In this document: in pieces, positions 16,528 to 47,901 of the stretch
Layout of the letters: each line of letters begins with the position of its first letter
Numbering within the stretch: position 1 is the first letter of the stretch
Sequence record: OL780484.1
Origin: Escherichia phage vB_EcoM-E33
DNA: 64,000 nucleotides
Direction: 5' to 3' (one strand)
Notes under the pieces: generated by a model
Database searches by the model: none
Told to the model about the DNA's origin: nothing
What the model saw: the letters and a program-made list of their open reading frames with translations, nothing else
Position numbers and translations under genes: made by a program

Positions 16528-17397
16528 ATGAACATTAAAACACGTAAAGAATATTCCATCTATGACCATGACACGACTCGTCGTATCGCTATCGATCGGC
16601 TGGCAGACTTTGGCCATATTTGTAATGGTAATTATACTTATGGTGTAGGTCGTAAAGGGACTTATATTAGTTCTTTGAACGATTATTGCCGTTGCCCTGC
16701 TCATTTATTTGGTGCAACACTGCGAGCTAATATCAAAGACCTCTTGGCTACCGCAGGACGTATTTCTACGGTTCCTGTCAATATCAAGAATATTAATTTT
16801 ACGGCTCGTAACCTAGTCATTAATATTCTGCCTGACGGTATTCAAGTTCGTTTCCGTCCTACCTCAAAAGGTAATAAGGCCCTTCGTGAAGCATTCGAAA
16901 CCTTATTCAGAGAGGCAATGACCCGTATTAAGGCAGTAGAATCATATAAAGTTACAACCGATGAATATGCTGATTGTTTTGAGCGGGCTGATGCAGTGTA
17001 TTTTAATGTTAAACTAACTCGTGAATATCTTTTGTCTTATGCCCCTTATCAATCCCAACAAAAGGACCCACAAATGGAACGTCGTATCTCTGCAGTATCA
17101 TGTGACAGTGTAGGCCAGTATGCGGCCTATGACAAATTCAAAACCACTGCTGTACCAAGCCCATTCAATTCCGAACCGTATCATTGGAAAATTAAACCCG
17201 AGAATTCTTTGGTGGTTACTAACCCTACGATGAAACCTATCGAGAAGTATCATGAGGACCACCTCCAGGAATCAATCCACCGTTTAAACGGCCAGATCGA
17301 AGATGAGAAAAAGAGTATCCAAGACGTATTGATTCGCATCAAGAACATGGAACTCCAGCGTGACAAGCTCCGCGCGGCAGTATTAGCTCTAAAATAA
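16528..17397 (+). CDS. hypothetical protein with helical C-terminal tail
   Basis: Start at ATG 16528 just after upstream TGA (alternative 16504). Confidence 0.45.
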   Translation: MNIKTRKEYSIYDHDTTRRIAIDRLADFGHICNGNYTYGVGRKGTYISSLNDYCRCPAHLFGATLRANIKDLLATAGRISTVPVNIKNINFTARNLVINILPDGIQVRFRPTSKGNKALREAFETLFREAMTRIKAVESYKVTTDEYADCFERADAVYFNVKLTREYLLSYAPYQSQQKDPQMERRISAVSCDSVGQYAAYDKFKTTAVPSPFNSEPYHWKIKPENSLVVTNPTMKPIEKYHEDHLQESIHRLNGQIEDEKKSIQDVLIRIKNMELQRDKLRAAVLALK

Positions 17398-17454
17398 TGT
17401 TTACATCCAAGGATGGATGGAGTATAATCTTTTAAATCTACTGAGGAGAATATC

Positions 17455-18465
17455 ATGACTCGTACTGAATACATCAATGCCTTTACTACGTATATCACTA
17501 CCAACACCCCTCCGTTAACCCCATACGAGGTAATAGTTTCTAATATCAATAAATGGGTCGACCAAATTGATGATGCATTATCGCGCTGTTTCAAAGCTGA
17601 AATCGAAAAGATTGCAGGCCGTTTGTGCATTCATGATATCATTAAAACATTTAAAGGTTCTCGACTGCTTTCGCGCCTGGTCAATAAGGACATCCTTTCT
17701 GAGTTCGGTAAAGAGAAATATCCAGGTTCCAACCGTGTTGTTAGCTACAAATGGTTTGGTGATACCATAAAAGGTTATATCAAAATTAAAGGTATGGACC
17801 CTAATAGTTTATTTCCGCAACGTTGGGTTAGCGAATTCAAGGCTAACTCTGCATTAATTCTCAAAGCGGCCTCTAAAACTATAGTTTCCGGTGATTGTCG
17901 TACTATTCACCCGATGGCTAATTGCATGATTAAAACAAATAGTTATAAAGGAAAAGCTATTATTTCTGTTATTTGGTCACCTAATAGGAAACCTAAAGAT
18001 GATGCGGAAGTTGTAAAGTATCAAGATATTGCTTACGATACCTTGAATACTATCGAACAAGCTTTAGCTCTGATGGATACCGTAGAGAAATATGAGACCC
18101 AAGAAGTTAAACACCACTTAGGCTGGAAAGGATATGAGGTCTTAGTAACAGTCCGTGAAATCAAATGTACCGTTCCAAAAACTGATGCTGAAATTTACAA
18201 AGAAAAATGTGAGGAAATTGTGAACACTGATAAAGAGCCTGCTACATTAGAAGATTTGATTAACGACTTGAACAGCCCTATCATGGCCCCTACACCAATT
18301 ACTAAATCCAAGTTACCGGAAGTCGTTGCCTTGGAAAAAGCGTATAAAGACGCCCTTGCTATCAACAAAAAACTGACTGGCCAATATACTGCTGCCAAGA
18401 AACTTTGGGAAGAGTCTACCAATCGTTTAGACCGTCTTGAACAGGCTCTGGAGCTGCTGAAATGA
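17455..18465 (+). CDS. hypothetical protein with helical C-terminal tail
   Basis: 336-aa ORF. Confidence 0.5.
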   Translation: MTRTEYINAFTTYITTNTPPLTPYEVIVSNINKWVDQIDDALSRCFKAEIEKIAGRLCIHDIIKTFKGSRLLSRLVNKDILSEFGKEKYPGSNRVVSYKWFGDTIKGYIKIKGMDPNSLFPQRWVSEFKANSALILKAASKTIVSGDCRTIHPMANCMIKTNSYKGKAIISVIWSPNRKPKDDAEVVKYQDIAYDTLNTIEQALALMDTVEKYETQEVKHHLGWKGYEVLVTVREIKCTVPKTDAEIYKEKCEEIVNTDKEPATLEDLINDLNSPIMAPTPITKSKLPEVVALEKAYKDALAINKKLTGQYTAAKKLWEESTNRLDRLEQALELLK

Positions 18466-18773
18466 AACAACGTTTAGCTGAAGATATTGCTTCAGCATCT
18501 AATACTGGTTTATTGAAATTTATTAAAGCCGCGGATGTTGAAGTTGAATTGGTTGGTAAAATTCATGGTTGTGATGATTATGATGATGCCGTTAATTGGG
18601 ATGCTGTAATGGCTATGGTCGCACGACGAGAACAAGCTTCTAAGAATGTTCCTAACTGTCCTAAGTGCGGCACAGAACAGGTTCAATTGGTCCATTGGCA
18701 GACTAGTAATCTTCGTTACAAATGCCGCCATTGTAAACATAAATTTGAGCGAGAAGAAAATGGCAAAGCGTAA
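18462..18773 (+). CDS. zinc-ribbon protein
   Basis: CPKCG...17 aa...CRHCKHKF C4 zinc ribbon. Confidence 0.5.
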
Positions 18774-20070: not shown

Positions 20071-21144
20071 ATGCAAGATTTCGGACATTGGGCGGTATTT
20101 GAAGAAACCGATATTAAAAACCATATTGGATTTGTATACGTAATCACTTTTGAAGATGGCAAAAAATATGTGGGTGCTAAAAAGATTTGGAAACGAATTA
20201 AAGCTGCACCTTGCACATTTAAACGCGGCCCTAAAAAAGGATTTGAAGAATCTGATTGGAAAACCTATACCTCATCATCTAATGAACTAAACGCAATGAT
20301 AGAAAAGGGTATAAGTCCTAAAGAGTACCTTATTGTAGGATGGTATCCTACTTGGGGTAAAACTCTTATGGCAGAAATGGAAATGCAATTAGCCAATGAT
20401 GTTTTACGAGACCCTATGTGGCTTAACAAGCAAATTGGCGGACATTTCAACCCTAACTGCTTTGACGATTTAACCGAAGATGATATTGCAAGATGGATGG
20501 AATTTGATAAAGGGAACGAACATGTTTCCTGGCCTATGATGTACAAAATCGGTCAGAAAACCAAATATGTTAAACCTGACGAAGTTGGCAAGTATATTAA
20601 ATCTGGGTGGCAATTTGGTCGTTCTAAAACAGAAAAACATTCTGTTACCTATAATTGCTCTAAATTTACTATATGGGACTATCAAGAAAATAAAGCAGTG
20701 GAAGTTCTAAATCAAAATGAGTTTGCTCGTAATAATGATTTAAGTAGCAACCATCTAACTAGACTACTTCAAGGAACTCTCGACCTTATTAAAGATCGCT
20801 GGGGACTTCCACCAGATATTGCTCGTCAGCGTTATAAATTTCAGGACGTTTCTTCAGGAACAAAATTTTTATCTAATTCTGAGTTAGAAGAATTTTACGG
20901 TATGACTCGCGGTCAGGCTAACAAAGCCGTTAAAGATGGAAGAGCCGTTAAATTGGTAGTCGAAAGCAAAGAAGACCACATTAAAAAACTTGGCTCTATC
21001 GAATTGGTAAAAACCGAAAAGACAAAAGTTACGTCTCAAGTAATGCTTAACAGTTTTAAAGATATAGTTAATCCTATGACCACTGCCGAAAAATCAGAAA
21101 TGATTGAATGGTTGGAAAGTTATATAACTTATTTGAAATCTTAA
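20071..21144 (+). CDS. GIY-YIG-like (Seg-type) putative homing endonuclease
   Basis: GFVYVITFEDGKKYVGAKK...WKR has GIY-x10-YIG spacing followed by basic residues; 357 aa. Confidence 0.4.
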   Translation: MQDFGHWAVFEETDIKNHIGFVYVITFEDGKKYVGAKKIWKRIKAAPCTFKRGPKKGFEESDWKTYTSSSNELNAMIEKGISPKEYLIVGWYPTWGKTLMAEMEMQLANDVLRDPMWLNKQIGGHFNPNCFDDLTEDDIARWMEFDKGNEHVSWPMMYKIGQKTKYVKPDEVGKYIKSGWQFGRSKTEKHSVTYNCSKFTIWDYQENKAVEVLNQNEFARNNDLSSNHLTRLLQGTLDLIKDRWGLPPDIARQRYKFQDVSSGTKFLSNSELEEFYGMTRGQANKAVKDGRAVKLVVESKEDHIKKLGSIELVKTEKTKVTSQVMLNSFKDIVNPMTTAEKSEMIEWLESYITYLKS

Positions 21145-32498: not shown

Positions 32499-32516
32499 GG
32501 GACTTCGGTCCCTTTT
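32499..32516 (+). terminator. hairpin GGGAC-ttcg-GTCCC + T4 followed by GGAGTATAATG
   Basis: Stem-loop and T-run; same downstream motif as 30347-30359. Confidence 0.5.
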
Positions 32517-32574
32517 GGAGTATAATGATTCATCAACAAACAAAAGACAATCACTCGTCTATAAAGGAAATGAA

Positions 32575-35286
32575 ATGCAAGAATTCTATTTGACAGTCGA
32601 ACAAATCGGTGATAATATTCTCGAACGTTACATCGATAAAAATGGTAACGAACGTAGTCGTGAAGTTCCTTACAAGCCTACAATGTTTATGCATGCTAAT
32701 CCAGAGCAAGCCGTAAAATACATTGATATCTATGGTAAGGGTTGTGTTAAGAAAGAATTCGACTCTATGCGTGATGCATCCCAATGGATGAAACGTATGG
32801 ACGATATGGGTCTCGAAGCCCTGGGTATGGACGACTATAAATTAGCCTATTTGTCTGATACCTATCGTAAAGAAATCAGATATGATTCTTCTAAGATTCG
32901 TATTGCTAACTTCGACATCGAGGTAACATCTCCTGATGGATTCCCTGAACCAGCTCAGGCTAAACATCCTATCGATGCCATTACCCACTACGACTCGATT
33001 GACGATAAATTCTATGTATTCGACCTTTTAGTTTCGCCTTATGGTACTGTCGAAGAGTGGTCGATTAAAATCGCTGAGAAACTCCAAGACGAAGGCGGTG
33101 ACGAAGTTCCACAAGAAATCATTGACAAAATCGTTTATCTTCCGTTTAATTCTGAAGAAGAAATGATGCTTGAGTACTTGAATTTCTGGCAACAGAAAAC
33201 TCCTGTGATTTTGACTGGATGGAACGTTGAGTCGTTTGACGTACCGTACGTTTATAACCGTCTGAAAAATCTGTTCGGTGAGAACACTGCTAAGCGATTA
33301 AGCCCACATCGTAAAACTCGTGTTAAAGTTATTGAGAACATGTACGGGGCTCGTGAAATCATTACATTGTTCGGTATCTCTGTTCTGGATTATATCGACC
33401 TCTATAAAAAATTCAGCTTCACCAACCAGCCTTCTTATTCTCTGGATTATGTTTCTGAATATGAATTGAAAGTAGGTAAGTTGAAATATGATGGCCCAAT
33501 CTCCAAGTTACGTGAGACGAACCACCAACGATATATTTCCTATAACATTATCGACGTATATCGTGTAGTGCAGATTGATATGAAGCGTCAGTTCATTCTT
33601 CTGAGTTTGGACATGGGTTATTATGCCAAGATGCAGATTCAGTCGGTGTTCAGCCCAATTAAGACTTGGGACGCTATTATCTTTAATAGCCTTAAAGAAC
33701 AAGGCAAGGTAATTCCACAAGCTCGCTCACACGTGGTCCAACCTTATCCTGGTGCTTTCGTTAAGGAACCGATTCCTAACGCTTACAAATATGTAATGAG
33801 TTTCGACCTTACATCTCTGTATCCGAGTATCATTCGACAAGTGAATATAAGCCCAGAGACCATCGCAGGGACATTCGCTAACGCACCGATACATGAATAT
33901 ATTGCCGGAACTGCTCAGCGTCCTAGCGACACCTACAGTTGCTCTCCTAACGGCATGATGTACTATAAAGACCGTGAAGGTGTGATTCCGACAGAAATCA
34001 CCAAGGTATTCTTGCAGCGTAAAGAACATAAAGGTTACATGCTTGCAGCTCAACGTAATGGTGAGTTAATTAAAGAAGCATTGGAAAATCCTAATCTCTC
34101 AGTTGATAGTCCACTGGATATCGATTATCGTTTTGACTTCTCTGACGAAATCAAAGCCAAGATTAAAGCACTGTCAGCGCCTTCTTTAAGAGAAATGTTG
34201 AAGAAAGCCGAGCTCACTGAAGTTGCAGGTAACACTGCTCAGATTAACCGTAAGTTGCTTATCAACTCCCTTTATGGTGCACTTGGTAACGTATGGTTCC
34301 GTTACTATGACCTCAGGAACGCAACTGCAATCACATTGTTTGGTCAAATGGCCCTCCAATGGATTGAACGTAAGGTTAACGAATATCTGAATAGCGTGTG
34401 TAAGACTGAAAACCAGAAGTTCGTGCTCTACGGTGATACTGACTCCATTTATGTTAAGGCAGATGCAATCATCAATAAAGTAGGCGAAGATAAATTCCGT
34501 GATACTAACCACTGGGTCGACTTCTTAGATAAATTTGCACGTGAACGTATGGAACCAGCTATTGATGCAGGCTTCCGTGAGATGTGCGAATACATGAACA
34601 ACAAACAACACTTGATGTTCATGGACCGAGAAGCTATCGCAGGTCCTCCACTTGGTTCTAAAGGCCTTGGTGGATTCTGGACAGGCAAGAAACGTTATGC
34701 ACTTAACGTTTGGGACATGGAAGGTACTCGTTATGCTGAACCACACTTGAAAATCATGGGTCTCGAAACTCAGAAATCAAGTACACCTAAAGCAGTTCAG
34801 AAAGCTCTGAAGGAATGTATCCGTCGTATGCTTCAGGAAGGCGAGGCATCTTTGCAAGAATATTTCAAACAGTTTAATAAGGAATTTAACGAACTCGATT
34901 ATGTAAGCATTGCAGCAGTATCCAGTGCTAACAACATCGAGAAATATAATGAAGGTGGATTCCCGGGTTCTAAATGTCCATACCACATCAAAGGTTGCTT
35001 AGCTTACATGCGTGCTTCTGCAGGTGATTTGACTATGCCTCGTATCGTTGATGGTGAAAAGGTATATGTACTGCCACTTAAAGAAGGCAACCCGTTCGGT
35101 GAAGCTTGTATGGCATGGCCGTCAGGTATTGAACTTCCGGTTCAGATTCGTGACCAAGTCCTCCGTTGGATGGACTACAACGTACTGTTCCAAAAGACCT
35201 TTATCAAACCTCTGACCGGTTTTACTGAGTCTGCTAAAATCGACTACGAGAAAAAAGCAACATTATTTGATATGTTCGACTTTTAA
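32575..35286 (+). CDS. 43: DNA polymerase gp43 (family B)
   Basis: Start at MQEFYLTVEQIG; exo motifs FDIE, polymerase motifs DxxSLYPSI and YGDTDS; long colinear match to remembered T4/RB69 gp43. Confidence 0.95.
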   Translation: MQEFYLTVEQIGDNILERYIDKNGNERSREVPYKPTMFMHANPEQAVKYIDIYGKGCVKKEFDSMRDASQWMKRMDDMGLEALGMDDYKLAYLSDTYRKEIRYDSSKIRIANFDIEVTSPDGFPEPAQAKHPIDAITHYDSIDDKFYVFDLLVSPYGTVEEWSIKIAEKLQDEGGDEVPQEIIDKIVYLPFNSEEEMMLEYLNFWQQKTPVILTGWNVESFDVPYVYNRLKNLFGENTAKRLSPHRKTRVKVIENMYGAREIITLFGISVLDYIDLYKKFSFTNQPSYSLDYVSEYELKVGKLKYDGPISKLRETNHQRYISYNIIDVYRVVQIDMKRQFILLSLDMGYYAKMQIQSVFSPIKTWDAIIFNSLKEQGKVIPQARSHVVQPYPGAFVKEPIPNAYKYVMSFDLTSLYPSIIRQVNISPETIAGTFANAPIHEYIAGTAQRPSDTYSCSPNGMMYYKDREGVIPTEITKVFLQRKEHKGYMLAAQRNGELIKEALENPNLSVDSPLDIDYRFDFSDEIKAKIKALSAPSLREMLKKAELTEVAGNTAQINRKLLINSLYGALGNVWFRYYDLRNATAITLFGQMALQWIERKVNEYLNSVCKTENQKFVLYGDTDSIYVKADAIINKVGEDKFRDTNHWVDFLDKFARERMEPAIDAGFREMCEYMNNKQHLMFMDREAIAGPPLGSKGLGGFWTGKKRYALNVWDMEGTRYAEPHLKIMGLETQKSSTPKAVQKALKECIRRMLQEGEASLQEYFKQFNKEFNELDYVSIAAVSSANNIEKYNEGGFPGSKCPYHIKGCLAYMRASAGDLTMPRIVDGEKVYVLPLKEGNPFGEACMAWPSGIELPVQIRDQVLRWMDYNVLFQKTFIKPLTGFTESAKIDYEKKATLFDMFDF

Positions 35287-35348: not shown

Positions 35349-35585
35349 ATGGAAGCTTTAATCGTTAGTGCTGGTGTTTTAGGATTCGGTTCTCTGGTTA
35401 TTATGTTCATCGGTTACTTTTTACCATGGATTCTGGCTCTTCTGCGAGGCACTCGTAGTAATGTAGGAATTTTCTTCCTTAATCTCCTGTTAGGCTGGAC
35501 GATGATTGGTTGGGTAGTGGCTTTAATCTGGGCTATCGTCGCTGAACGTAAATCAAACGCACAAATCATTATTGTTAAACAATGA
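35349..35585 (+). CDS. small two-helix membrane protein (Imm-like by position)
   Basis: 78 aa, two hydrophobic helices; T4 imm/imm.1 follow gene 43. Confidence 0.4.
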   Translation: MEALIVSAGVLGFGSLVIMFIGYFLPWILALLRGTRSNVGIFFLNLLLGWTMIGWVVALIWAIVAERKSNAQIIIVKQ

Positions 35586-35719
35586 AAATAATTGTTTTAT
35601 TTCTTATAATGGCTGCCTTTACCGTTTATTGGGCAGTGGCAATTCCGCCAATGATTCCGACACTCATCATTGGATGGATTATTCTTATAGCACAAATTAA
35701 GTATAACTGTTTTAATTGA
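35582..35719 (+). CDS. small membrane peptide (45 aa)
   Basis: ATG overlapping upstream TGA; hydrophobic; not in ORF track. Confidence 0.3.
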   Translation: MKIIVLFLIMAAFTVYWAVAIPPMIPTLIIGWIILIAQIKYNCFN

Positions 35720-35726
35720 GGATATT

Positions 35727-36227
35727 ATGAAAAAGTTAATTATCGCAATGAGTATGCTCCTATCAGGTTGCGCGGTCCAATATGGTGATACAGTTTCGGC
35801 CGATGAAGTTGGTAAAGCTCGTATCGCAGCTGAACAGAAACAATTCGATGGCGAAATGAAATTCCGTGCAGGTTCTGGACTTGTGTACACCCGAGCTAAT
35901 AATCAATGCGGTAATAACTGTGCAAAATATGCTCAACAAGAAATCGAATTCCAACGTGAACAAGAGTCCAAGCGTGAAGCGGTACTAGCCAAACACCAGG
36001 CAGAAATGAAGCGTCAAGATGATTTGTACAAAAAGCAGAAACTGTATGCGATGTGCGTAAACCATATCAATCTACAGATTTCCATCCACGAGGCTCGTTA
36101 TTACGAAATGCTCGAAACCGAGAGCTTCGGTAAAGCTCGTGATTATAAGAAACAAATCGATAAGCTCAAGACCAAAGTACCGGCGGCAATAGAACAGTGT
36201 ATTGAAATCGGTAAAGATAAGATTTAA
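35727..36227 (+). CDS. putative lipoprotein
   Basis: Signal peptide with lipobox LLSGC; 166 aa. Confidence 0.5.
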   Translation: MKKLIIAMSMLLSGCAVQYGDTVSADEVGKARIAAEQKQFDGEMKFRAGSGLVYTRANNQCGNNCAKYAQQEIEFQREQESKREAVLAKHQAEMKRQDDLYKKQKLYAMCVNHINLQISIHEARYYEMLETESFGKARDYKKQIDKLKTKVPAAIEQCIEIGKDKI

Positions 36228-36287
36228 GCAATACCAATTTATTAAAAATAGTGTATAATGTACCTACATTCACTTGAGGAACAGATA

Positions 36288-37961
36288 ATGAAAAAGGTTG
36301 TTATTTTAGGCGCGGGTCTTGGCTCACGGTTGTATCCAATTACCAACGAAATCCCGAAGGTACTGGTTAACTACAAACAACATACTGTATTAAAACATTT
36401 GTATGATTTGTATAGTAATCAATCAGATGAAATTATTCTGGTTATTCACAGCAAATTTAACGACCTCGTTAAAGGCTATATTAAATCCATTAACATGATT
36501 AATAGTGATAAGCCTAAATTCACTATTCGTAACGTTGATGTTGCCAATGGTTCGGCTCATGCTATCGATTGCATTGCCGAAGATATCATTGGGCACAATG
36601 TCTTGTTTAACTGGTGTGATATTATTCCTGAAGGTCATAAAGTTGAGTGGGATAACGACTACTGTTATACCTATGGGACTGACTGTCGTTTTACATTTGA
36701 AGAACCGTACTTGCGTGAAATTGGTACCGGTGGTGGCGTAGTTGGCTTGTATCAGGTGGCTAATTGGACAGGTTTCGACCGTTCTAATTATGGTGAAGAC
36801 CTTGCTGACAACCTGGATTCAATGGTCCATTTGACTGAACGTAAGTTAGACTTTGTAGTTGATGTTGGTGACAAACTGAAACTGGCTAAGGCGCATGAAG
36901 ATTCTGAAATTAACCGTGAATTTAATAAATTAGAGTTCACCGAGAATCTAGCTATTAAAGTACCAACTAACGAATTGGGTAAAGAAATCCAATCTAAAGA
37001 AATCAATTGGTATAATTCTATTGATTCCGAATTCGTTCCTAGCATTGTAGACTTTGCTCCAGGCGAATTCATTAAAATGGAACGTATCTTTGGTCGAACC
37101 ATGGCAGATGCCTACCGGTTTATGTCTAAAGAAACTAAAGTCCTAATGGTTTATAAGGTTATTAGTGCATTACGTTCGTTCGGTGGAACTATCGATAATC
37201 CGTCCGATGAGCAATGGTATTCTGATGTTAAGAAAGAAGTATTGGACAAGGTCCTTATTCGTAATGCTTCTATTGCCGGATTGATTGAAGGCTTTGCTCC
37301 ACAGGGTATTACCCATGTTAACGACTTCAAGGTAGGCGACCCAGAAAAACTTCTTCGTCACGCCTTAGAAATTCTGTCTGAACATAAAGAACCGTACCAA
37401 CTTATTCATGGCGACCCGCACTACAGTAATATTATGTTGTCGGACGAAGGTAATATTAAAATCATCGACCCACGTGGTTATTTTGGTAATAGTTCTAAAG
37501 GCCCTGCGATTTATGATGAAGCTAAGGTGCTTTATTCTATCGATGGTTATGACAAATTTAACTCTGACCCTCTATGGGGTGGCTTAACTCGTAACGGAAC
37601 TCGTGTATTCGTTGATATTGAAAAGGTTATGCCTTTAGATGATATTCCGATGTGTACATTTAAGCACAAGCTCTGGATTGCTGTTATCTGGATGGCATTG
37701 GCAGGTTACTTTAAAAATAACCCTCTGAAAGCTCTGGGCGCTTATTACAATGGGCTATATCAACTGAGTGTGCTGCTGAAGCGGCATCCTCGTAAGCGTA
37801 AGCTTATCACAGGTGAATTCGTTGATGAAGTTCGCGACCCTATCACGGCTCAAATTATCACTCGTTGTCCTGATAAGTGGGTTTTGCTTGACCAGGAAAC
37901 TGGTGTAAAATATAAACCTACAGGTTCTACCGAACTCCACAAACAATGGAAGAAAATTTAA
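36288..37961 (+). CDS. bifunctional sugar-phosphate nucleotidyltransferase / kinase-like protein
   Basis: N-term ILGAGLGSRL (G-x-G-x-R nucleotidyltransferase motif); C-term HGDPHYSNIML...IIDPRG (APH/choline-kinase-like catalytic loop); start at ATG 36288 after GAGGA. Confidence 0.55.
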   Translation: MKKVVILGAGLGSRLYPITNEIPKVLVNYKQHTVLKHLYDLYSNQSDEIILVIHSKFNDLVKGYIKSINMINSDKPKFTIRNVDVANGSAHAIDCIAEDIIGHNVLFNWCDIIPEGHKVEWDNDYCYTYGTDCRFTFEEPYLREIGTGGGVVGLYQVANWTGFDRSNYGEDLADNLDSMVHLTERKLDFVVDVGDKLKLAKAHEDSEINREFNKLEFTENLAIKVPTNELGKEIQSKEINWYNSIDSEFVPSIVDFAPGEFIKMERIFGRTMADAYRFMSKETKVLMVYKVISALRSFGGTIDNPSDEQWYSDVKKEVLDKVLIRNASIAGLIEGFAPQGITHVNDFKVGDPEKLLRHALEILSEHKEPYQLIHGDPHYSNIMLSDEGNIKIIDPRGYFGNSSKGPAIYDEAKVLYSIDGYDKFNSDPLWGGLTRNGTRVFVDIEKVMPLDDIPMCTFKHKLWIAVIWMALAGYFKNNPLKALGAYYNGLYQLSVLLKRHPRKRKLITGEFVDEVRDPITAQIITRCPDKWVLLDQETGVKYKPTGSTELHKQWKKI

Positions 37962-38320
37962 TGCATCTGTGTTTTGATATCGATAATACCATTACTCACT
38001 GGCAAGATGACCGTGATTACGAAAACTTTAAACCGGACACCGAAATGGTGTCCATGATTAATAAGCTTTATGATGAAGGGTACGAGATTACCTTGTTCAC
38101 TGCCCGTGGTATGACTTCATGCGGCCCGGGTCGAATCTTGGTTGAAGTAGTTCCTGCATTAGTTAAGAACCTTGAAAAGATTGGATTGAAATATCACAAT
38201 CTGCTTACACATAAGCCGAGTTATACTTTTATCATCGATGACCGAGCAATCCGTCCTGACCACTTTAAAGAAATGGTTCGTGAAGGAACTCTTGAAACCT
38301 ATAAGGCATATCATCCGTGA
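37961..38320 (+). CDS. HAD-superfamily phosphatase-like protein
   Basis: Motif I FDIDNTIT (DxDxT), LFTARG, IIDDR; TAATG overlap with upstream gene. Confidence 0.5.
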   Translation: MHLCFDIDNTITHWQDDRDYENFKPDTEMVSMINKLYDEGYEITLFTARGMTSCGPGRILVEVVPALVKNLEKIGLKYHNLLTHKPSYTFIIDDRAIRPDHFKEMVREGTLETYKAYHP

Positions 38321-38853
38321 AACCAAAAATCATTGTTATCGACGGCCCGGATAATTCCGGGAAGTCTACTTTAATTGAATCACTTTTATCTGATAAGAAA
38401 TATCGTCTTATTGATTTCCCTAAAAAGATTAATGGCAAATGCATTTCATTAGGGACCGATAATGACAAGGCTTTAGTCGAGACGTTGTATAAGTTTTTAG
38501 ACCCTAATTTCGTTTACATCCTTGACCGTGGTTATCCAAGTAATATTGTTTACTCGGGATTCCTTCGCGGTGAAATGGACCCTTATGTAGAACTGGAAGA
38601 TTGGAAAAGGTTTAAATCTGAATTCAATATTATTGAGGTTATTTTAACCCGTAATCCACTGGATAAAGACTTTGAAGATGACCTTATTAAATTAACCAAA
38701 GATGAGTTCAACCTAACTATCCGCCAATACGAAACATGTTTTGAAAACGTGTTTAAAATCTTAAATCACGACGGCCATAATAACTTGCTTAACGTCGATA
38801 TGGTAGAATTAAAACGTCTGAATGAATATATTGAAAATAAGGTGAATAAATGA
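38317..38853 (+). CDS. thymidylate-kinase-like P-loop nucleotide kinase
   Basis: IVIDGPDNSGKSTL Walker A, RLIDFP and LDRGYPSNIVYSGF resemble TMPK motifs. Confidence 0.5.
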   Translation: MKPKIIVIDGPDNSGKSTLIESLLSDKKYRLIDFPKKINGKCISLGTDNDKALVETLYKFLDPNFVYILDRGYPSNIVYSGFLRGEMDPYVELEDWKRFKSEFNIIEVILTRNPLDKDFEDDLIKLTKDEFNLTIRQYETCFENVFKILNHDGHNNLLNVDMVELKRLNEYIENKVNK

Positions 38854-39548
38854 AACACATTACCGCTGTTAGTTTTGAAAACGCGTTTAAGCAAATGAAC
38901 GAAGAAATCCTGGAAGCTCCACAGTTTGCAGTTGATTCTCGTATCGGCCGTTGTTATGAAATTGGTTCTGCTTCGGTAGAAGTACTGGATGCAAGCACCT
39001 ATAAATTCACCGACCCTCGTATTAATCGTATCAACTATGATTATGCCGAATCTTTCTGGAAGTTTATGATTTCTGGTGGTACTGACGCCGCCGAAGCATT
39101 TAAGGAATACCCTAATGTTGCTAAGTTCATTGATAAGCCGAAAAGTGACGTATTGCCTGCAAACTTCAACACTTTCTATGGACCTAGAATTGTGGCCCAA
39201 CTCCCAGCCTTACTTAAAGAGCTTAAAGAGAAGCCTAACTCAAGACGAGTTGTGTTCCAAATTCTCCAAGAACAAGACCAAGCCCTCCTTGATTCTGACG
39301 AATCCTTAGAATATCCATGTACTGATTCAGTGACATATTATATTCGTGATGGACGTCTTTATGCACATACCCATATGCGTTCACAGAACTGTGCTATTGT
39401 TATGCAGCTGGATTTCTATCTGCAGGGTAAACTGATGGCCTTTATTGCTGAACAGTGTGGTGTTGGTCTGGGTACGTATTCCCATACTATGGTTAGTGCA
39501 CACGTATTTGAACGTGATTTTGACTACGTTCGAGGATTCCTGAAATGA
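38850..39548 (+). CDS. thymidylate-synthase-family pyrimidine hydroxymethylase (divergent gp42-like)
   Basis: KPNSRRVVF, catalytic-Cys motif YPCTDSVTYYIRD, MRSQN, SAHVF align to remembered T4 gp42 motifs; low overall identity. Confidence 0.5.
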   Translation: MKHITAVSFENAFKQMNEEILEAPQFAVDSRIGRCYEIGSASVEVLDASTYKFTDPRINRINYDYAESFWKFMISGGTDAAEAFKEYPNVAKFIDKPKSDVLPANFNTFYGPRIVAQLPALLKELKEKPNSRRVVFQILQEQDQALLDSDESLEYPCTDSVTYYIRDGRLYAHTHMRSQNCAIVMQLDFYLQGKLMAFIAEQCGVGLGTYSHTMVSAHVFERDFDYVRGFLK

Positions 39549-40438
39549 GTTTGTTTATCGTTCCTATTTTCAGTATGCGTAGTTACGAAACAGGTGAATA
39601 TGCCGTCCTTAAGGACGGTAATTTTCAACTCCATTTAAACCGTGCTTGCCAAGGTGATTATCTGGCTTATCCTAGAAATTCGAGCGATATCAAAGAATGC
39701 ATTGAATTATTTCCTGAACTGAATTTTGTACCTCTTTGGTATAAAGAAAATGCTTATGAAACTCGTAAACATTTTTGGTCTGAAAATGAGTTCGTTGTTG
39801 ATTCGTTAATCGAATACTATGACTGCTCAGGATTGGTAACCGATATCACAGGTTATGATGGCACTCAGACTGTACAATTCAACTTTAACATTACAATGGA
39901 CCCTGAAGTTCCTCGTTATTATATCGACGAGTTTATTGATACCGACGTGTCCTCAGTTGAACGTTCGATTTATACCACAGTCCTGAATCAATGCCAGAAA
40001 GACGTCCTGGTGTCACGAGGTGCGTCCTCTGATAAGATTTTTGTAGACCAAAAGGTAATTAATCCGGCAGTAATTGAGCGTTACTCTGAAGGCCTAGCGC
40101 CTATTAAAATTGATGGTATTTTCCATCCATTCCGTATCTCTGATAAATGTTATCAATTCGAAAGAGTTGTAGACCAAGCTGCGGCTGAAGGTTCTCGCCT
40201 TTATATCACCGATCCGAATGATTCATTTAAGCGTGAAGACTATCGTCCTGATGTAGAGATTATTAAATTCAAACCGAGTAAGGTTGAATATTATCAGATT
40301 CTGAAATCAAGACCTCATATCATTTATCATGAGAATCCCAGTTTAGTATTTCATCCTGGCCTGGCTGAATTCATTTATTTCGGTGCCCACATCCATTCTG
40401 AGCACGAAATGCCAAGTTATGAGGACGTGGTCCTTTAA
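39545..40438 (+). CDS. hypothetical protein (occupies T4 beta-glucosyltransferase slot)
   Basis: 297-aa ORF coupled to the upstream gene; no motif recognised. Confidence 0.45.
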   Translation: MSLFIVPIFSMRSYETGEYAVLKDGNFQLHLNRACQGDYLAYPRNSSDIKECIELFPELNFVPLWYKENAYETRKHFWSENEFVVDSLIEYYDCSGLVTDITGYDGTQTVQFNFNITMDPEVPRYYIDEFIDTDVSSVERSIYTTVLNQCQKDVLVSRGASSDKIFVDQKVINPAVIERYSEGLAPIKIDGIFHPFRISDKCYQFERVVDQAAAEGSRLYITDPNDSFKREDYRPDVEIIKFKPSKVEYYQILKSRPHIIYHENPSLVFHPGLAEFIYFGAHIHSEHEMPSYEDVVL

Positions 40439-40515
40439 CGCTGTAAATGTGAAGTGATATAATTACCCTATCTTAAAACGTGAGTAAAATATAATGATGC
40501 CTATGGAAAAATATA

Positions 40516-41688
40516 ATGTCTGATTTAAAATCCCGTTTGATTAAAGCTTCTACTTCTAAAATGACCGCCGACCTGACCAAATCTAAATTGTTTAATGGTC
40601 GTGACGAAGTTCCTACTCGTATCCCTATGCTGAATATTGCATTAGGCGGTGCGTTGAATGCAGGCTTACAATCAGGTTTGACAATCTTTGCTGCTCCATC
40701 TAAACACTTTAAAACGTTGTTTGGACTTACCATGGTTGCGGCATATATGAAGAAATATCCAGACGCAATTTGTTTGTTCTATGACTCTGAGTTTGGTGCT
40801 TCAGAATCTTATTTCCGTTCGATGGGTGTTGATTTGGAACGTGTGGTTCATACACCAATCCAGTCAGTCGAACAGCTTAAAGTTGATATGACCAACCAGT
40901 TAGAAGAAATTACTCGTGGCGAAAAGGTTATTATCTTTATCGACTCCATTGGTAACACTGCTTCTAAGAAAGAAACCGAAGATGCTTTGAACGAGAAAGT
41001 TGTAGGTGATATGACTCGTGCTAAATCACTGAAATCTCTGTTCCGTATCGTAACACCTTATCTGACCATCAAAGATATCCCTTGTGTAGCAATTAACCAC
41101 ACGGCTATGGAAATTGGTGGAATGTACCCTAAAGAGATTATGGGTGGTGGTACTGGTATTCTGTACTCTGCTTCTACCGTGTTCTTTATCTCTAAACGTC
41201 AGGTTAAAGATGGTACTGAGCTCACTGGTTATGACTTCACACTGAAGGCCGAGAAATCTCGTACGGTTAAAGAGAAATCAACGTTCCCGATTACAGTGAA
41301 CTTCGAAGGTGGTATCGACCCATTCAGTGGATTGCTTGAAATGGCTACTGATATTGGCTTTGTCGTGAAACCTAAAGCTGGCTGGTATAATCGTGCATTC
41401 CTTGACGAAACCACAGGCGAAATGGTTCAAGAAGAAAAAGCATGGCGTGCTAAAGCTACCGATTGTGTCGAGTTCTGGGGACCGCTGTTTAAACATGCCC
41501 CGTTCCGTGAAGCAATCGAGAATAAGTATAAGCTCGGTGCAATTAATTCTATTAAAGAAGTTGACGATGCAGTGAACGACCTTATTAACTCTCGTGTCTC
41601 TAAGAACGTTGCTGTTAAATTAGGTGGTAATGCCCAAAGCGCCGCTGATATCGAAAACGATTTGGAAGAGATGAATTTAGATGACTGA
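40516..41688 (+). CDS. uvsX: recombinase UvsX (RecA-like)
   Basis: 390 aa; MSDLKSRLIKASTSK..., Walker A GPSKxFKT, colinear with remembered T4 UvsX. Confidence 0.95.
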   Translation: MSDLKSRLIKASTSKMTADLTKSKLFNGRDEVPTRIPMLNIALGGALNAGLQSGLTIFAAPSKHFKTLFGLTMVAAYMKKYPDAICLFYDSEFGASESYFRSMGVDLERVVHTPIQSVEQLKVDMTNQLEEITRGEKVIIFIDSIGNTASKKETEDALNEKVVGDMTRAKSLKSLFRIVTPYLTIKDIPCVAINHTAMEIGGMYPKEIMGGGTGILYSASTVFFISKRQVKDGTELTGYDFTLKAEKSRTVKEKSTFPITVNFEGGIDPFSGLLEMATDIGFVVKPKAGWYNRAFLDETTGEMVQEEKAWRAKATDCVEFWGPLFKHAPFREAIENKYKLGAINSIKEVDDAVNDLINSRVSKNVAVKLGGNAQSAADIENDLEEMNLDD

Positions 41689-46718: not shown

Positions 46719-47375
46719 ATGAATTACGAAAAAATATACCAGGAATTAATATCTAAAGGAAAATTAAGAGGTTCTAAGCGGTCTTTATCATATTATACGG
46801 AAGAACACCATGTTATACCTAGATGTATGAATGGTTCTGATGATAAAAACAATTTAGTTGCTTTATTGCCAAGAGAACACTTTGTAGCTCATAGGCTTTT
46901 AACAAAAATATATCCCGAAGTAAAAGGTCTACATTATGCTGTTAATTTAATGAGATATAATAAAGGAGTTAAATTAACTAGTAGAACTATAGCCACGTTA
47001 AGAGAAAATAACGCTAAAGCATTTTCAGGAAAAAATAACCCGATGTTTGGTAAACCTTCCTGGATTAGAGGGATGAAAACTCCTGAAGAAACTAAAGCCA
47101 AAATGCGCCTGGCTCATAAAGATAAAATTATATCTGATGAAGCCAAGGCCAATATGAGTAAAGCTAGAAAAGGAAGATTTAGTGGTAAAGATTCCCCTAG
47201 ATATGGTTTGCCGAATCCTAGGCGTGGAGAAATATGGAATAGTTACGATATGCTTTACGAATTATGGGTTTACAATAATAAACCTAAACGCACCAAATTT
47301 AATAAAATAGCTGTTGATAATGGATATCCTGATATTTGTTATCGACGAATGATAGAAAACTTTAATAGGAAATAA
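46719..47375 (+). CDS. Mob-type HNH homing endonuclease
   Basis: HNH motif EEHHVIPRCMNGSDDKNNLVALLPREH; NUMOD3-like GKNNPMFGK; AT-rich; paralog of 11078-11842. Confidence 0.7.
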   Translation: MNYEKIYQELISKGKLRGSKRSLSYYTEEHHVIPRCMNGSDDKNNLVALLPREHFVAHRLLTKIYPEVKGLHYAVNLMRYNKGVKLTSRTIATLRENNAKAFSGKNNPMFGKPSWIRGMKTPEETKAKMRLAHKDKIISDEAKANMSKARKGRFSGKDSPRYGLPNPRRGEIWNSYDMLYELWVYNNKPKRTKFNKIAVDNGYPDICYRRMIENFNRK

Positions 47376-47379
47376 TATA

Positions 47380-47901
47380 ATGGCATTTTTTAACGAATGT
47401 AGTGGTTTGATTTCTGGTGTTGATAAAGCTGAGGAAGCTTATTTTAATGCTCTGATTCATGAAGATAAAGACCCTCTGCAGGTTATGCTTGATATGCAGA
47501 AATCATTACAGGTCCGTTTGGCTACTGAAAAATCTGAATTTAACTCTAACCCCGATGAACTGGCTACTGCAGGTCAAGTTGTCGATTGGCTTCGCAACCA
47601 GAAAGATTATATTGATGACGAATTCCGTGAACTGTTGACTTCTCTTGGTGGCATGAGTAATGGTGAGAAAGCCGCATCTAGCGTCTGGAAGCCTTGGAAA
47701 GCTCAGCACGGTGAATTCCGTAACCGTCGTATTGACGAACTCTCTCCTGAAGACCAGCTTGAAATTAAATTCGAGATGATTGATATTCTGCACTTTGTTC
47801 TGAATATGTTCCAAGGTCTTGGTCTGTCAGCCGAAGAAATCTTTAAGTTGTATTACCTGAAAAACGCTGAGAACTTTGCTCGTCAAGACCGAGGTTATTA
47901 A
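47380..47901 (+). CDS. 56: dCTP pyrophosphatase gp56 (MazG-like all-alpha NTP-PPase)
   Basis: 173 aa; DDEFRELL and EMIDILHFVL resemble MazG-type motifs; T4-like position next to 61. Confidence 0.6.
   Translation: MAFFNECSGLISGVDKAEEAYFNALIHEDKDPLQVMLDMQKSLQVRLATEKSEFNSNPDELATAGQVVDWLRNQKDYIDDEFRELLTSLGGMSNGEKAASSVWKPWKAQHGEFRNRRIDELSPEDQLEIKFEMIDILHFVLNMFQGLGLSAEEIFKLYYLKNAENFARQDRGY

Follow-up and report, generated by a model that had tools for sequence, protein, structure and literature searches.

The DNA analyzed here is a stretch of 64,000 nucleotides from Escherichia phage vB_EcoM-E33 (OL780484.1), referred to below as the window. It belongs to the genus Dhakavirus (JS98 group) and carries, in the slot between gene 43 and uvsX, a block of five open reading frames (ORFs), which we call g1 to g5 in their order on the plus strand. 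Most probably the block encodes the pathway for arabinosyl-5-hydroxycytosine (ara-5hoC, 'Afh') DNA hypermodification in its Dhakavirus form; this pathway is known from the phages RB69, HY126, DLP3 and Bas46/47. An earlier prediction, made from the sequence of the window alone, had proposed a DNA hypermodification operon at this position; this proposal holds, as each of the five has its counterpart in the ara-5hoC cluster of RB69 and HY126. Every pathway step described in the following is assigned by homology and fold; experimental proof of the enzyme activities comes from the work of others on RB69, HY126 and DLP3.

The proteins from the window were compared directly with those of the RB69 and HY126 clusters. 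The identities are 43% for g1, 62% for g2, 37% for g3, 79% for g4 and 67% for g5. RB69 and HY126 (Mosigvirus; gp45-gp55 plus gp3, named 'Afh' in HY126) have the cluster in the same slot between gp43 and uvsX, with the same five core enzymes, including a glycosyltransferase of roughly 300 amino acids (aa) with a GT-B fold. Two features of the arrangement differ. The Tmk-like gene stands before the synthase gene in the window, whereas it follows the transferase gene in RB69 and HY126; and the window cluster, unlike theirs, is preceded by Imm and a gene for a 166-aa lipoprotein-like protein. Within the genus the block is highly conserved. Its DNA is 99.2-99.5% identical to that of Salmonella phage ABTNLS3 and Escherichia phages LHE83, QL01 and WG01, and 97% identical to that of Bp7. 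Gene order along the window follows that of QL01 from about gene 122 via rIIA to rIIB. All five ORFs are intact and are kept at an identity of at least 95% in about 49 independent Dhakavirus isolates.

The chemistry of this modification has been revised over the years. A review from 2010 stated that RB69 and JS98 have homologs of 'gene 42' and no glucosyltransferases, and left the nature of the modification open (PMC2993671). Thomas et al. reported in 2018 that the cytosines of RB69 carry arabinose, with hydroxymethylcytosine (hmC) as the assumed base (PMC6024577). The hmC assignment for RB69 was explicitly retracted in later work (PMC13390438); in the revised structure D-arabinofuranose is ether-linked directly to C5 via 5-hydroxycytosine (5hoC) (PMC13326640, PMC13390438). 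The enzyme that forms 5-hydroxy-dCMP (5hodCMP), gp48 in RB69 and gp80 in DLP3, is homologous to thymidylate synthase, binds flavin and uses O2; GT-B transferases then add one arabinose (Thanatos), two (RB69, Bas46/47, NP) or three (DLP3) (PMC13326640). The original prediction had considered arabinosylation of hmC as in RB69-type phages. The identity of the pathway stands, while hmC has to be given up, because the sugar is ether-linked to 5hoC. The pathway is also not a candidate for a new system: its steps were worked out in 2025-2026, and a published list of the genera with a syntenic cluster includes Dhakaviruses (PMC13326640).

The base is best assigned from g4. Pfam places this protein in the thymidylate synthase family (Thymidylat_synt, 5e-14), and the 79% identity given above holds for both RB69 gp48 and the 238-aa enzyme of HY126. 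In the PDB it matches 9iqc, 9iqu and 9ir2 with an E value of 1e-125, compared with only 5e-6 for the T4 dCMP hydroxymethylase 1b49; the identity to T4 gp42 is 25% over 159 aa. We aligned g4 with E. coli ThyA, T4 gp42 and RB69 gp48, using the residue numbers of a verified ThyA reference sequence (100% identical to PDB 1aob). In g4 C146 is kept and the exchanges L143E, D169N and N177D are present; T4 gp42, unlike g4, keeps Asp169. Furthermore, g4 has neither Trp80/Trp83 nor the C-terminal segment, parts which form the folate site. The sequence features of a folate-dependent, T4-type gp42, namely Asp169 and the folate-site residues in place and a close similarity to gp42, were not seen in g4. The D169N exchange is diagnostic of 5hodCMP synthases, with nine further D169N homologs verified experimentally; N177D stands for dCMP specificity and forms the synthase signature together with Cys146 and D169N; and relatives of g4 were shown to make 5hodCMP with incorporation of 18O2 and a bound flavin (PMC13326640). 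We predict that g4 is a thymidylate-synthase-family dCMP 5-hydroxylase, that is a flavin- and O2-dependent 5hodCMP synthase, and not a hydroxymethylase. With 79% identity to verified enzymes, the D169N signature and only 25% identity to gp42, the modified base is almost certainly 5hoC rather than hmC. The gene had been taken for a divergent hydroxymethylase of the thymidylate synthase family; the family and the place in a modified-dNMP branch remain, and the hydroxymethylase activity is contradicted by D169N and by the similarity to the 5hodCMP synthase. By its location g4 is the positional counterpart of T4 gene 42.

The activated sugar would come from g1 and g2. In g1, Pfam finds an NTP_transferase domain at residues 3-100 (2e-8) and an APH domain at residues 346-417 (9e-6), and phrog_4098 covers the full length of the protein. 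The alignment with the 562-aa enzyme of HY126 is colinear from end to end (557/562 aa), and GAGLxxRLYPIT, the catalytic loop HGDPxxSN and the metal-binding IDPRGYFG are kept between the two. The protein is the ortholog of HY126 AfhE and RB69 gp53:52. Its N-terminal domain is predicted to be a UDP-arabinofuranose pyrophosphorylase (a sugar-1-phosphate nucleotidyltransferase) and its C-terminal, APH/choline-kinase-like domain a D-arabinose-5-phosphate (Ara5P) 1-kinase. The second gene product, g2, carries a DxDxT motif (FDIDNT) and has RB69 gp51 and a 128-aa protein of HY126 as its counterparts. It matches 9iqw (E 3e-53) and 1xpj (E 3e-12) in the PDB; Pfam gives weak HAD matches only, and the NCBIfam match to the capsule-biosynthesis phosphatase TIGR01689 (2e-14) is under the cut-off of that model. 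This small HAD-family phosphatase is the ortholog of HY126 AfhF and RB69 gp51, and we predict that it acts as an arabinofuranose-1,5-bisphosphate 5-phosphatase. According to the summary in PMC13326640, HY126 AfhE first phosphorylates Ara5P, which gives the 1,5-bisphosphate, and acts again later in the formation of UDP-arabinose; AfhF is a HAD phosphatase which takes off the 5-phosphate. The homology of g1 and g2 to AfhE and AfhF agrees with the route via kinase, phosphatase and nucleotidyltransferase to an NDP-pentose, of the kind that had been suggested from motifs. All of the motifs quoted at that time are present: ILGAGLGSRL at the N-terminus and HGDPHYSNIML...IIDPRG at the C-terminus of g1, FDIDNTIT in g2, and DGPDNSGKST and LDRGYPSNIVYSGF in g3.

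For g3 and g5, searching the PDB by sequence gave nothing useful, and both proteins were assessed by fold searches. For g3 these returned a thymidylate-kinase fold; the Pfam matches are weak and limited to P-loop/Tmk models, and the identity to the RB69/HY126 ortholog is the lowest of the five genes. The protein is the ortholog of RB69 gp45 and DLP3 gp78, and its inferred substrate is 5hodCMP or a glycosylated derivative. The fifth protein, g5, which adjoins the synthase g4 and has no match in Pfam, has a GT-B (GT4-like) fold. This protein, listed as unknown in the original prediction, is a glycosyltransferase and the ortholog of RB69 gp47:46, DLP3 gp79 and the single arabinosyltransferase of Thanatos. 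We predict that it is the first (base-proximal, alpha) arabinosyltransferase, which acts on 5hoC. The GT4-like relatives of g5 are retaining enzymes, and a retaining mechanism would fit the base-proximal arabinose of RB69 and DLP3, which is alpha-linked.

Together these assignments give the following putative pathway. A gp56-type dCTPase, encoded outside the operon, would yield dCMP and remove dCTP, and in this way lead to full replacement of cytosine. The g4 enzyme, with a thymidylate-synthase fold switched from folate to flavin/O2 chemistry, would hydroxylate C5 to give 5hodCMP. The triphosphate would be made by the T4 gp1-type dNMP kinase, which is encoded elsewhere in the genome, probably with help from g3, and by host NDK; the phage polymerase would then incorporate 5-hydroxy-dCTP instead of C. 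For the sugar, the C-terminal kinase domain of g1 would phosphorylate Ara5P at C1, g2 would take off the 5-phosphate, and the N-terminal domain of g1 would join arabinofuranose-1-phosphate and UTP to UDP-arabinofuranose. Finally, g5 would attach the arabinofuranose to the 5-hydroxyl. The QL01 record annotates the gp1 dNMP kinase, alc, denA and denB, genes which accompany full cytosine replacement; the presence of alc, denA and denB is consistent with such a replacement. The gp1-type kinase of RB69 is known to accept 5hodCMP.

Several genes of the RB69 cluster were not found. With tblastn, no match to RB69 gp55 (a SIS-domain Ara5P isomerase), the U32-like gp50, gp49 or the second transferase gp3 was obtained in the window or in the genome of QL01, which was scanned in four pieces that cover all but the 1,757 bases at its start, part of the annotated rIIA gene. 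The interval between rIIA and gp39, where RB69 has gp3, lies inside the window and holds only ORFs of 53 and 107 aa. A hidden Markov model of the g5 family found no paralog, and no glycosyltransferase (GT) or SIS domain was seen in those larger unassigned Dhakavirus proteins that were tested. T4-type gp42, alpha-gt and beta-gt were not found either; T4 beta-gt gave no tblastn match in QL01 or, with E values up to 1 allowed, in the window. A phage-encoded isomerase is known from RB69, HY126 and DLP3 but is not universal. Homologs of g5 are present in 350 phage records and those of the Ara5P isomerase in 276, and the gap corresponds roughly to the Dhakavirus records (49 at an identity of at least 95%) plus Klebsiella phages. 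The isomerase is also missing at the locus of Klebsiella phage F48 (Marfavirus), which has the highest identities outside the genus (80% for g1, 84% for g2, 76% for g3, 86% for g4 and 68% for g5) and the same gene order as the window (AfhE-like, HAD, Tmk-like, synthase, GT). In F48 a 386-aa U32-like gene, 86% identical to that of HY126, is kept and separates the Tmk-like kinase from the synthase; it was either lost from the window or never present there. Judged by gene content, the Dhakavirus block is the most reduced natural version among the clusters compared, and it consists of exactly the five genes which are common to all arabinosylating clusters in this comparison. This suggests an accessory role for the isomerase, the U32-like protein and the extra transferases, with the five-gene block as the smallest natural core.

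The reduced gene set has two consequences. E. coli makes Ara5P constitutively for the synthesis of Kdo (3-deoxy-D-manno-octulosonate) through KdsD and GutQ. Since no phage isomerase was found, we infer that Ara5P is supplied by the host via these two enzymes. The second consequence concerns the product. In the known systems there is one arabinosyltransferase for each arabinose added, with one in Thanatos, two in RB69 and three in DLP3 (PMC13326640); the additional transferases are gp3 in RB69 and gp76/77 in DLP3. The presence of a single transferase therefore points to mono-arabinosyl-5hoC as the likely product in the window, in contrast to the DNA of RB69, which is mostly di-arabinosylated. 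The outcome would be the same as in Shewanella phage Thanatos, likened here by its published description, which has a single syntenic arabinosyltransferase of about 300 aa, a 561-aa fusion enzyme, a thymidylate synthase homolog and mono-arabinosylated DNA (PMC13326640). Thanatos has a distant host and lineage, and the group that described its system gives a different assignment for some activities (PMC12838424).

A comparison with T4, which has genes 42 and beta-gt for glucosyl-hmC in the same slot, reveals a common plan and a different chemistry. In both cases dCMP is modified ahead of replication by an enzyme with a thymidylate-synthase fold, and a sugar activated with UDP is transferred by a GT-B enzyme; T4 and the Dhakaviruses also have the support genes gp56, gp1, alc and denA/denB in common. 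The window is predicted to use flavin/O2 hydroxylation with the sugar ether-linked to C5, while T4 uses folate hydroxymethylation; and the pentofuranose would be made by the phage itself, while T4 relies on host UDP-glucose. In addition to the low identity between g4 and gp42, g5 has no detectable sequence similarity to beta-gt, with which it has only the general GT-B fold in common.

Some points weigh against the pathway as proposed. A literature search found no DNA chemistry for any Dhakavirus. In vitro reconstitution of the first arabinosyltransferase with 5hoC DNA has not been achieved (PMC13326640), and the acceptor of g5, whether DNA or nucleotide, is a prediction. The gp1-type kinase of RB69 already phosphorylates 5hodCMP, and the role given to g3 is putative. 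With 43% identity between g1 and the characterized enzyme, the sugar specificity is not guaranteed, and without a phage isomerase the supply of Ara5P is an assumption. Finally, a second, unrecognizable transferase may be encoded elsewhere, as several larger Dhakavirus proteins have no family assignment.

Two sizeable proteins of unknown function, one of 297 aa with DUF7235 and one of 336 aa from phrog_1435, were considered as hidden transferases and rejected on the basis of sequence profiles; they give no GT signal in Pfam or PHROGs and no match to the g5 profile. Both are encoded near nrdC and are conserved as QL01 gp086 and gp085 respectively. They also lack an isomerase signal. They have a weak match to phrog_26858 in common and may be distant paralogs of each other.

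Among the alternatives, an unlikely but conceivable one is that the first sugar is added before replication. In this case g5 would act on 5-hydroxy-dCMP, g3 would phosphorylate the arabinosyl-5hodCMP and the polymerase would use a glycosylated dCTP; ordinary dNMP kinases may be poor on the bulky arabinosyl-5hodCMP, hence the need for g3. This possibility is left open by three observations: the genes for the kinase, the synthase and the first transferase are linked across systems with different sugars (RB69 45/46:47/48, DLP3 78/79/80, RL38J1 214/215/216; PMC13326640), here by ATGA overlaps; the first transferase was inactive on 5hoC DNA in vitro; and the authors could not tell whether its acceptor is a nucleotide or DNA (PMC13326640).

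We consider it improbable that the base is 5hoC but the sugar another pentose, with g1 and g2 activating a pentose phosphate that is plentiful in the host, such as ribose-5-phosphate, or a further sugar instead of Ara5P. The absence of a recognizable isomerase from the window and the scanned QL01 genome would fit this scenario, as would the divergence of g1, which is the second most diverged of the five proteins from RB69/HY126. There are also precedents for other sugars: in RL38J1 5hoC carries galactose and glucose (PMC13326640), and a UDP-xylose pyrophosphorylase activity was reported by the Thanatos authors (PMC12838424). However, the isomerase-less Marfavirus cluster, which is the closest relative with 80% identity in g1, keeps the same enzymes, and g2 and g5 are 62-67% identical to orthologs from the arabinose pathway. 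An E. coli host provides Ara5P constitutively via KdsD and GutQ. Moreover Thanatos, with its single arabinosyltransferase, is described as mono-arabinosylated (PMC13326640).

It is very improbable that the cluster is partly vestigial, so that loss of the isomerase and the second transferase crippled the sugar branch and left bare 5hoC or a partial modification. The gene set is indeed smaller than those of RB69, Marfavirus and DLP3, but the five ORFs are intact and tightly coupled, their catalytic motifs are intact, and the conservation in about 49 independent isolates mentioned above speaks against decay. The least probable explanation is that g4 is a divergent dCMP hydroxymethylase and the DNA contains arabinosyl- or another glycosyl-hmC according to the T4 paradigm: the family of g4, the gene 42 position, the presence of C146, N177D and an acidic residue 143 in both g4 and T4 gp42, and the older descriptions of RB69 and JS98 (PMC6024577, PMC2993671) are in its favor, but Asn169, the missing W80/W83 and C-terminal segment, the high identity to enzymes shown to make 5hodCMP with 18O2 and bound flavin (PMC13326640) as opposed to 25% to gp42, and the retraction of hmC in RB69 (PMC13390438) contradict it.

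An ara-5hoC pathway in Dhakaviruses is of interest because 5hoC results from a surprising reaction, a flavin chemistry on the scaffold of a thymidylate synthase, and because the system protects phage DNA against restriction enzymes, the Brig1 glycosylase and some CRISPR systems. The ara-5hoC story itself has already been told for RB69, HY126, DLP3 and Bas46/47; the contribution of the window is modest and consists of a correction of annotations, a minimal core and two predictions, namely mono-arabinosylated DNA and dependence of the phage on host Ara5P. If the dependence on KdsD/GutQ is true, it makes an enzyme for a lipopolysaccharide precursor a host factor of the phage.

Existing annotations of the block are either uninformative or incorrect. 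None of the five proteins has a specific model in Pfam, PHROGs or NCBIfam, and every match is under the curated cut-off. Public records label them as 'hypothetical', 'thymidylate synthase', 'dCMP hydroxymethylase', 'thymidylate kinase', 'phosphoheptose isomerase' or 'RNA polymerase binding protein'. The label 'phosphoheptose isomerase' is wrongly attached to g2 and has its source in phrog_1238; 'RNA polymerase binding protein' is wrongly used for g5 in several records; and g4 is mislabelled as 'thymidylate synthase' or 'dCMP hydroxymethylase'. The misannotation of these three genes is propagating. Dhakaviruses are common in collections of phage-therapy isolates (from poultry and human E. coli), and a correction is of practical use.

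Coordinates of the five-gene block and of other features in the window. An empty cell means that no entry is available.
Feature	Position	Strand	Description
DUF7235 protein	16538-17431	+	297 aa
phrog_1435 protein	17489-18499	+	336 aa
SegE-like protein	20071-21144	+	357 aa; GIY-YIG homing endonuclease (PF19835, E 1e-33)
gene 43	32515-35286	+	coordinates with the start of the ORF caller
Imm	35349-35585		PF14373, E 5e-18
45-aa ORF	35582-35719	+	strongly hydrophobic
166-aa ORF	35727-36227	+	lipoprotein-like
g1	36288-37961	+	557 aa; putative bifunctional kinase/nucleotidyltransferase
g2	37946-38320	+	124 aa; putative small HAD-family phosphatase
g3	38317-38853	+	178 aa, GTG start; thymidylate-kinase-like P-loop nucleotide kinase (putative)
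g4	38850-39548	+	232 aa; thymidylate-synthase-family enzyme
g5	39545-40438	+	297 aa; GT-B (GT4-like) glycosyltransferase
uvsX	40516-41688
HNH/NUMOD3 ORF	46719-47375	+	218 aa; homing-endonuclease-like
gp56	47380-47901	+	gp56-type dCTPase/dUTPase, outside the operon; 88% identical to QL01 gp56 (annotated dCTPase); Pfam dUTPase_2 2e-6

The block extends from 36288 to 40438, and both these coordinates and the synteny with the 42/beta-gt slot, as first proposed, proved correct: the corresponding interval of the T4 record reads 43-imm.1-imm-42-beta-gt-segA-uvsX. On the upstream side gp43 is followed by Imm, the 45-aa ORF and the 166-aa ORF; on the downstream side uvsX is followed by gp40 and gp41. 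The start of g1 at 36288 is an ATG with a GAGGA ribosome site, while an upstream ATG at 36258 is without one. For g2 an alternative ATG at 37961 would give the product of 119 aa named in the original prediction; the overlap between g1 and g2 is 16 nucleotides, or a single nucleotide (TAATG) with this second ATG. The remaining junctions are overlaps of four nucleotides (GTGA for g2/g3 and ATGA for g3/g4 and g4/g5). Because the genes overlap at all junctions, the translational coupling claimed for the block is plausible.

The guanine-plus-cytosine content of the five genes (0.34-0.42) is ordinary for the window (0.39), and a recent transfer inferred from composition was rejected for this reason. 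Scans for promoters and terminators between 35200 and 40700 gave sites which are no more numerous than in shuffled sequence. Two motifs, TATAAT upstream of g1 (36254-36259) and TGATATAAT upstream of uvsX (40455-40463), count as no more than candidates.

The 45-aa ORF (MKIIVLFLIMAAFTVYWAVAIPPMIPTLIIGWIILIAQIKYNCFN) between imm and the 166-aa ORF has no annotation in the QL01 RefSeq record and no match in Pfam. RB69 gp54 and a 47-aa ORF of HY126, both of which head the arabinosylation clusters, have an identity of 56-60% to this ORF, and it may be a conserved small membrane protein. The 166-aa ORF, which adjoins the operon, has a lipoprotein-type signal (MKKLIIAMSMLLSGC...) and a charged and coiled C-terminal half, and it matches phrog_1754, a family of unknown function. 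In T4, imm.1 is located on the opposite side of imm from this position.

Three further observations concern genes at other sites. The TTG start set by the ORF caller for gene 43, which gives a protein of 923 aa, is an artefact according to the QL01 annotation; this has its start at an internal ATG (MQEFYL..., 32575) and a protein of 903 aa. The SegE-like homing endonuclease is found at the site of QL01 gene 49 (endonuclease VII). The QL01 endonuclease VII has no tblastn match in the 64-kb window, and the two small flanking genes are conserved; the same layout occurs in ABTNLS3, while Bp7 appears to be about 460 bases longer at this site. The HNH/NUMOD3 ORF lies directly upstream of gp56 and is absent from QL01. 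Here gp56 is 86-88% identical to QL01, compared with about 98% for the surrounding DNA; an insertion next to a diverged gp56 is the pattern expected of endonuclease-driven co-conversion.

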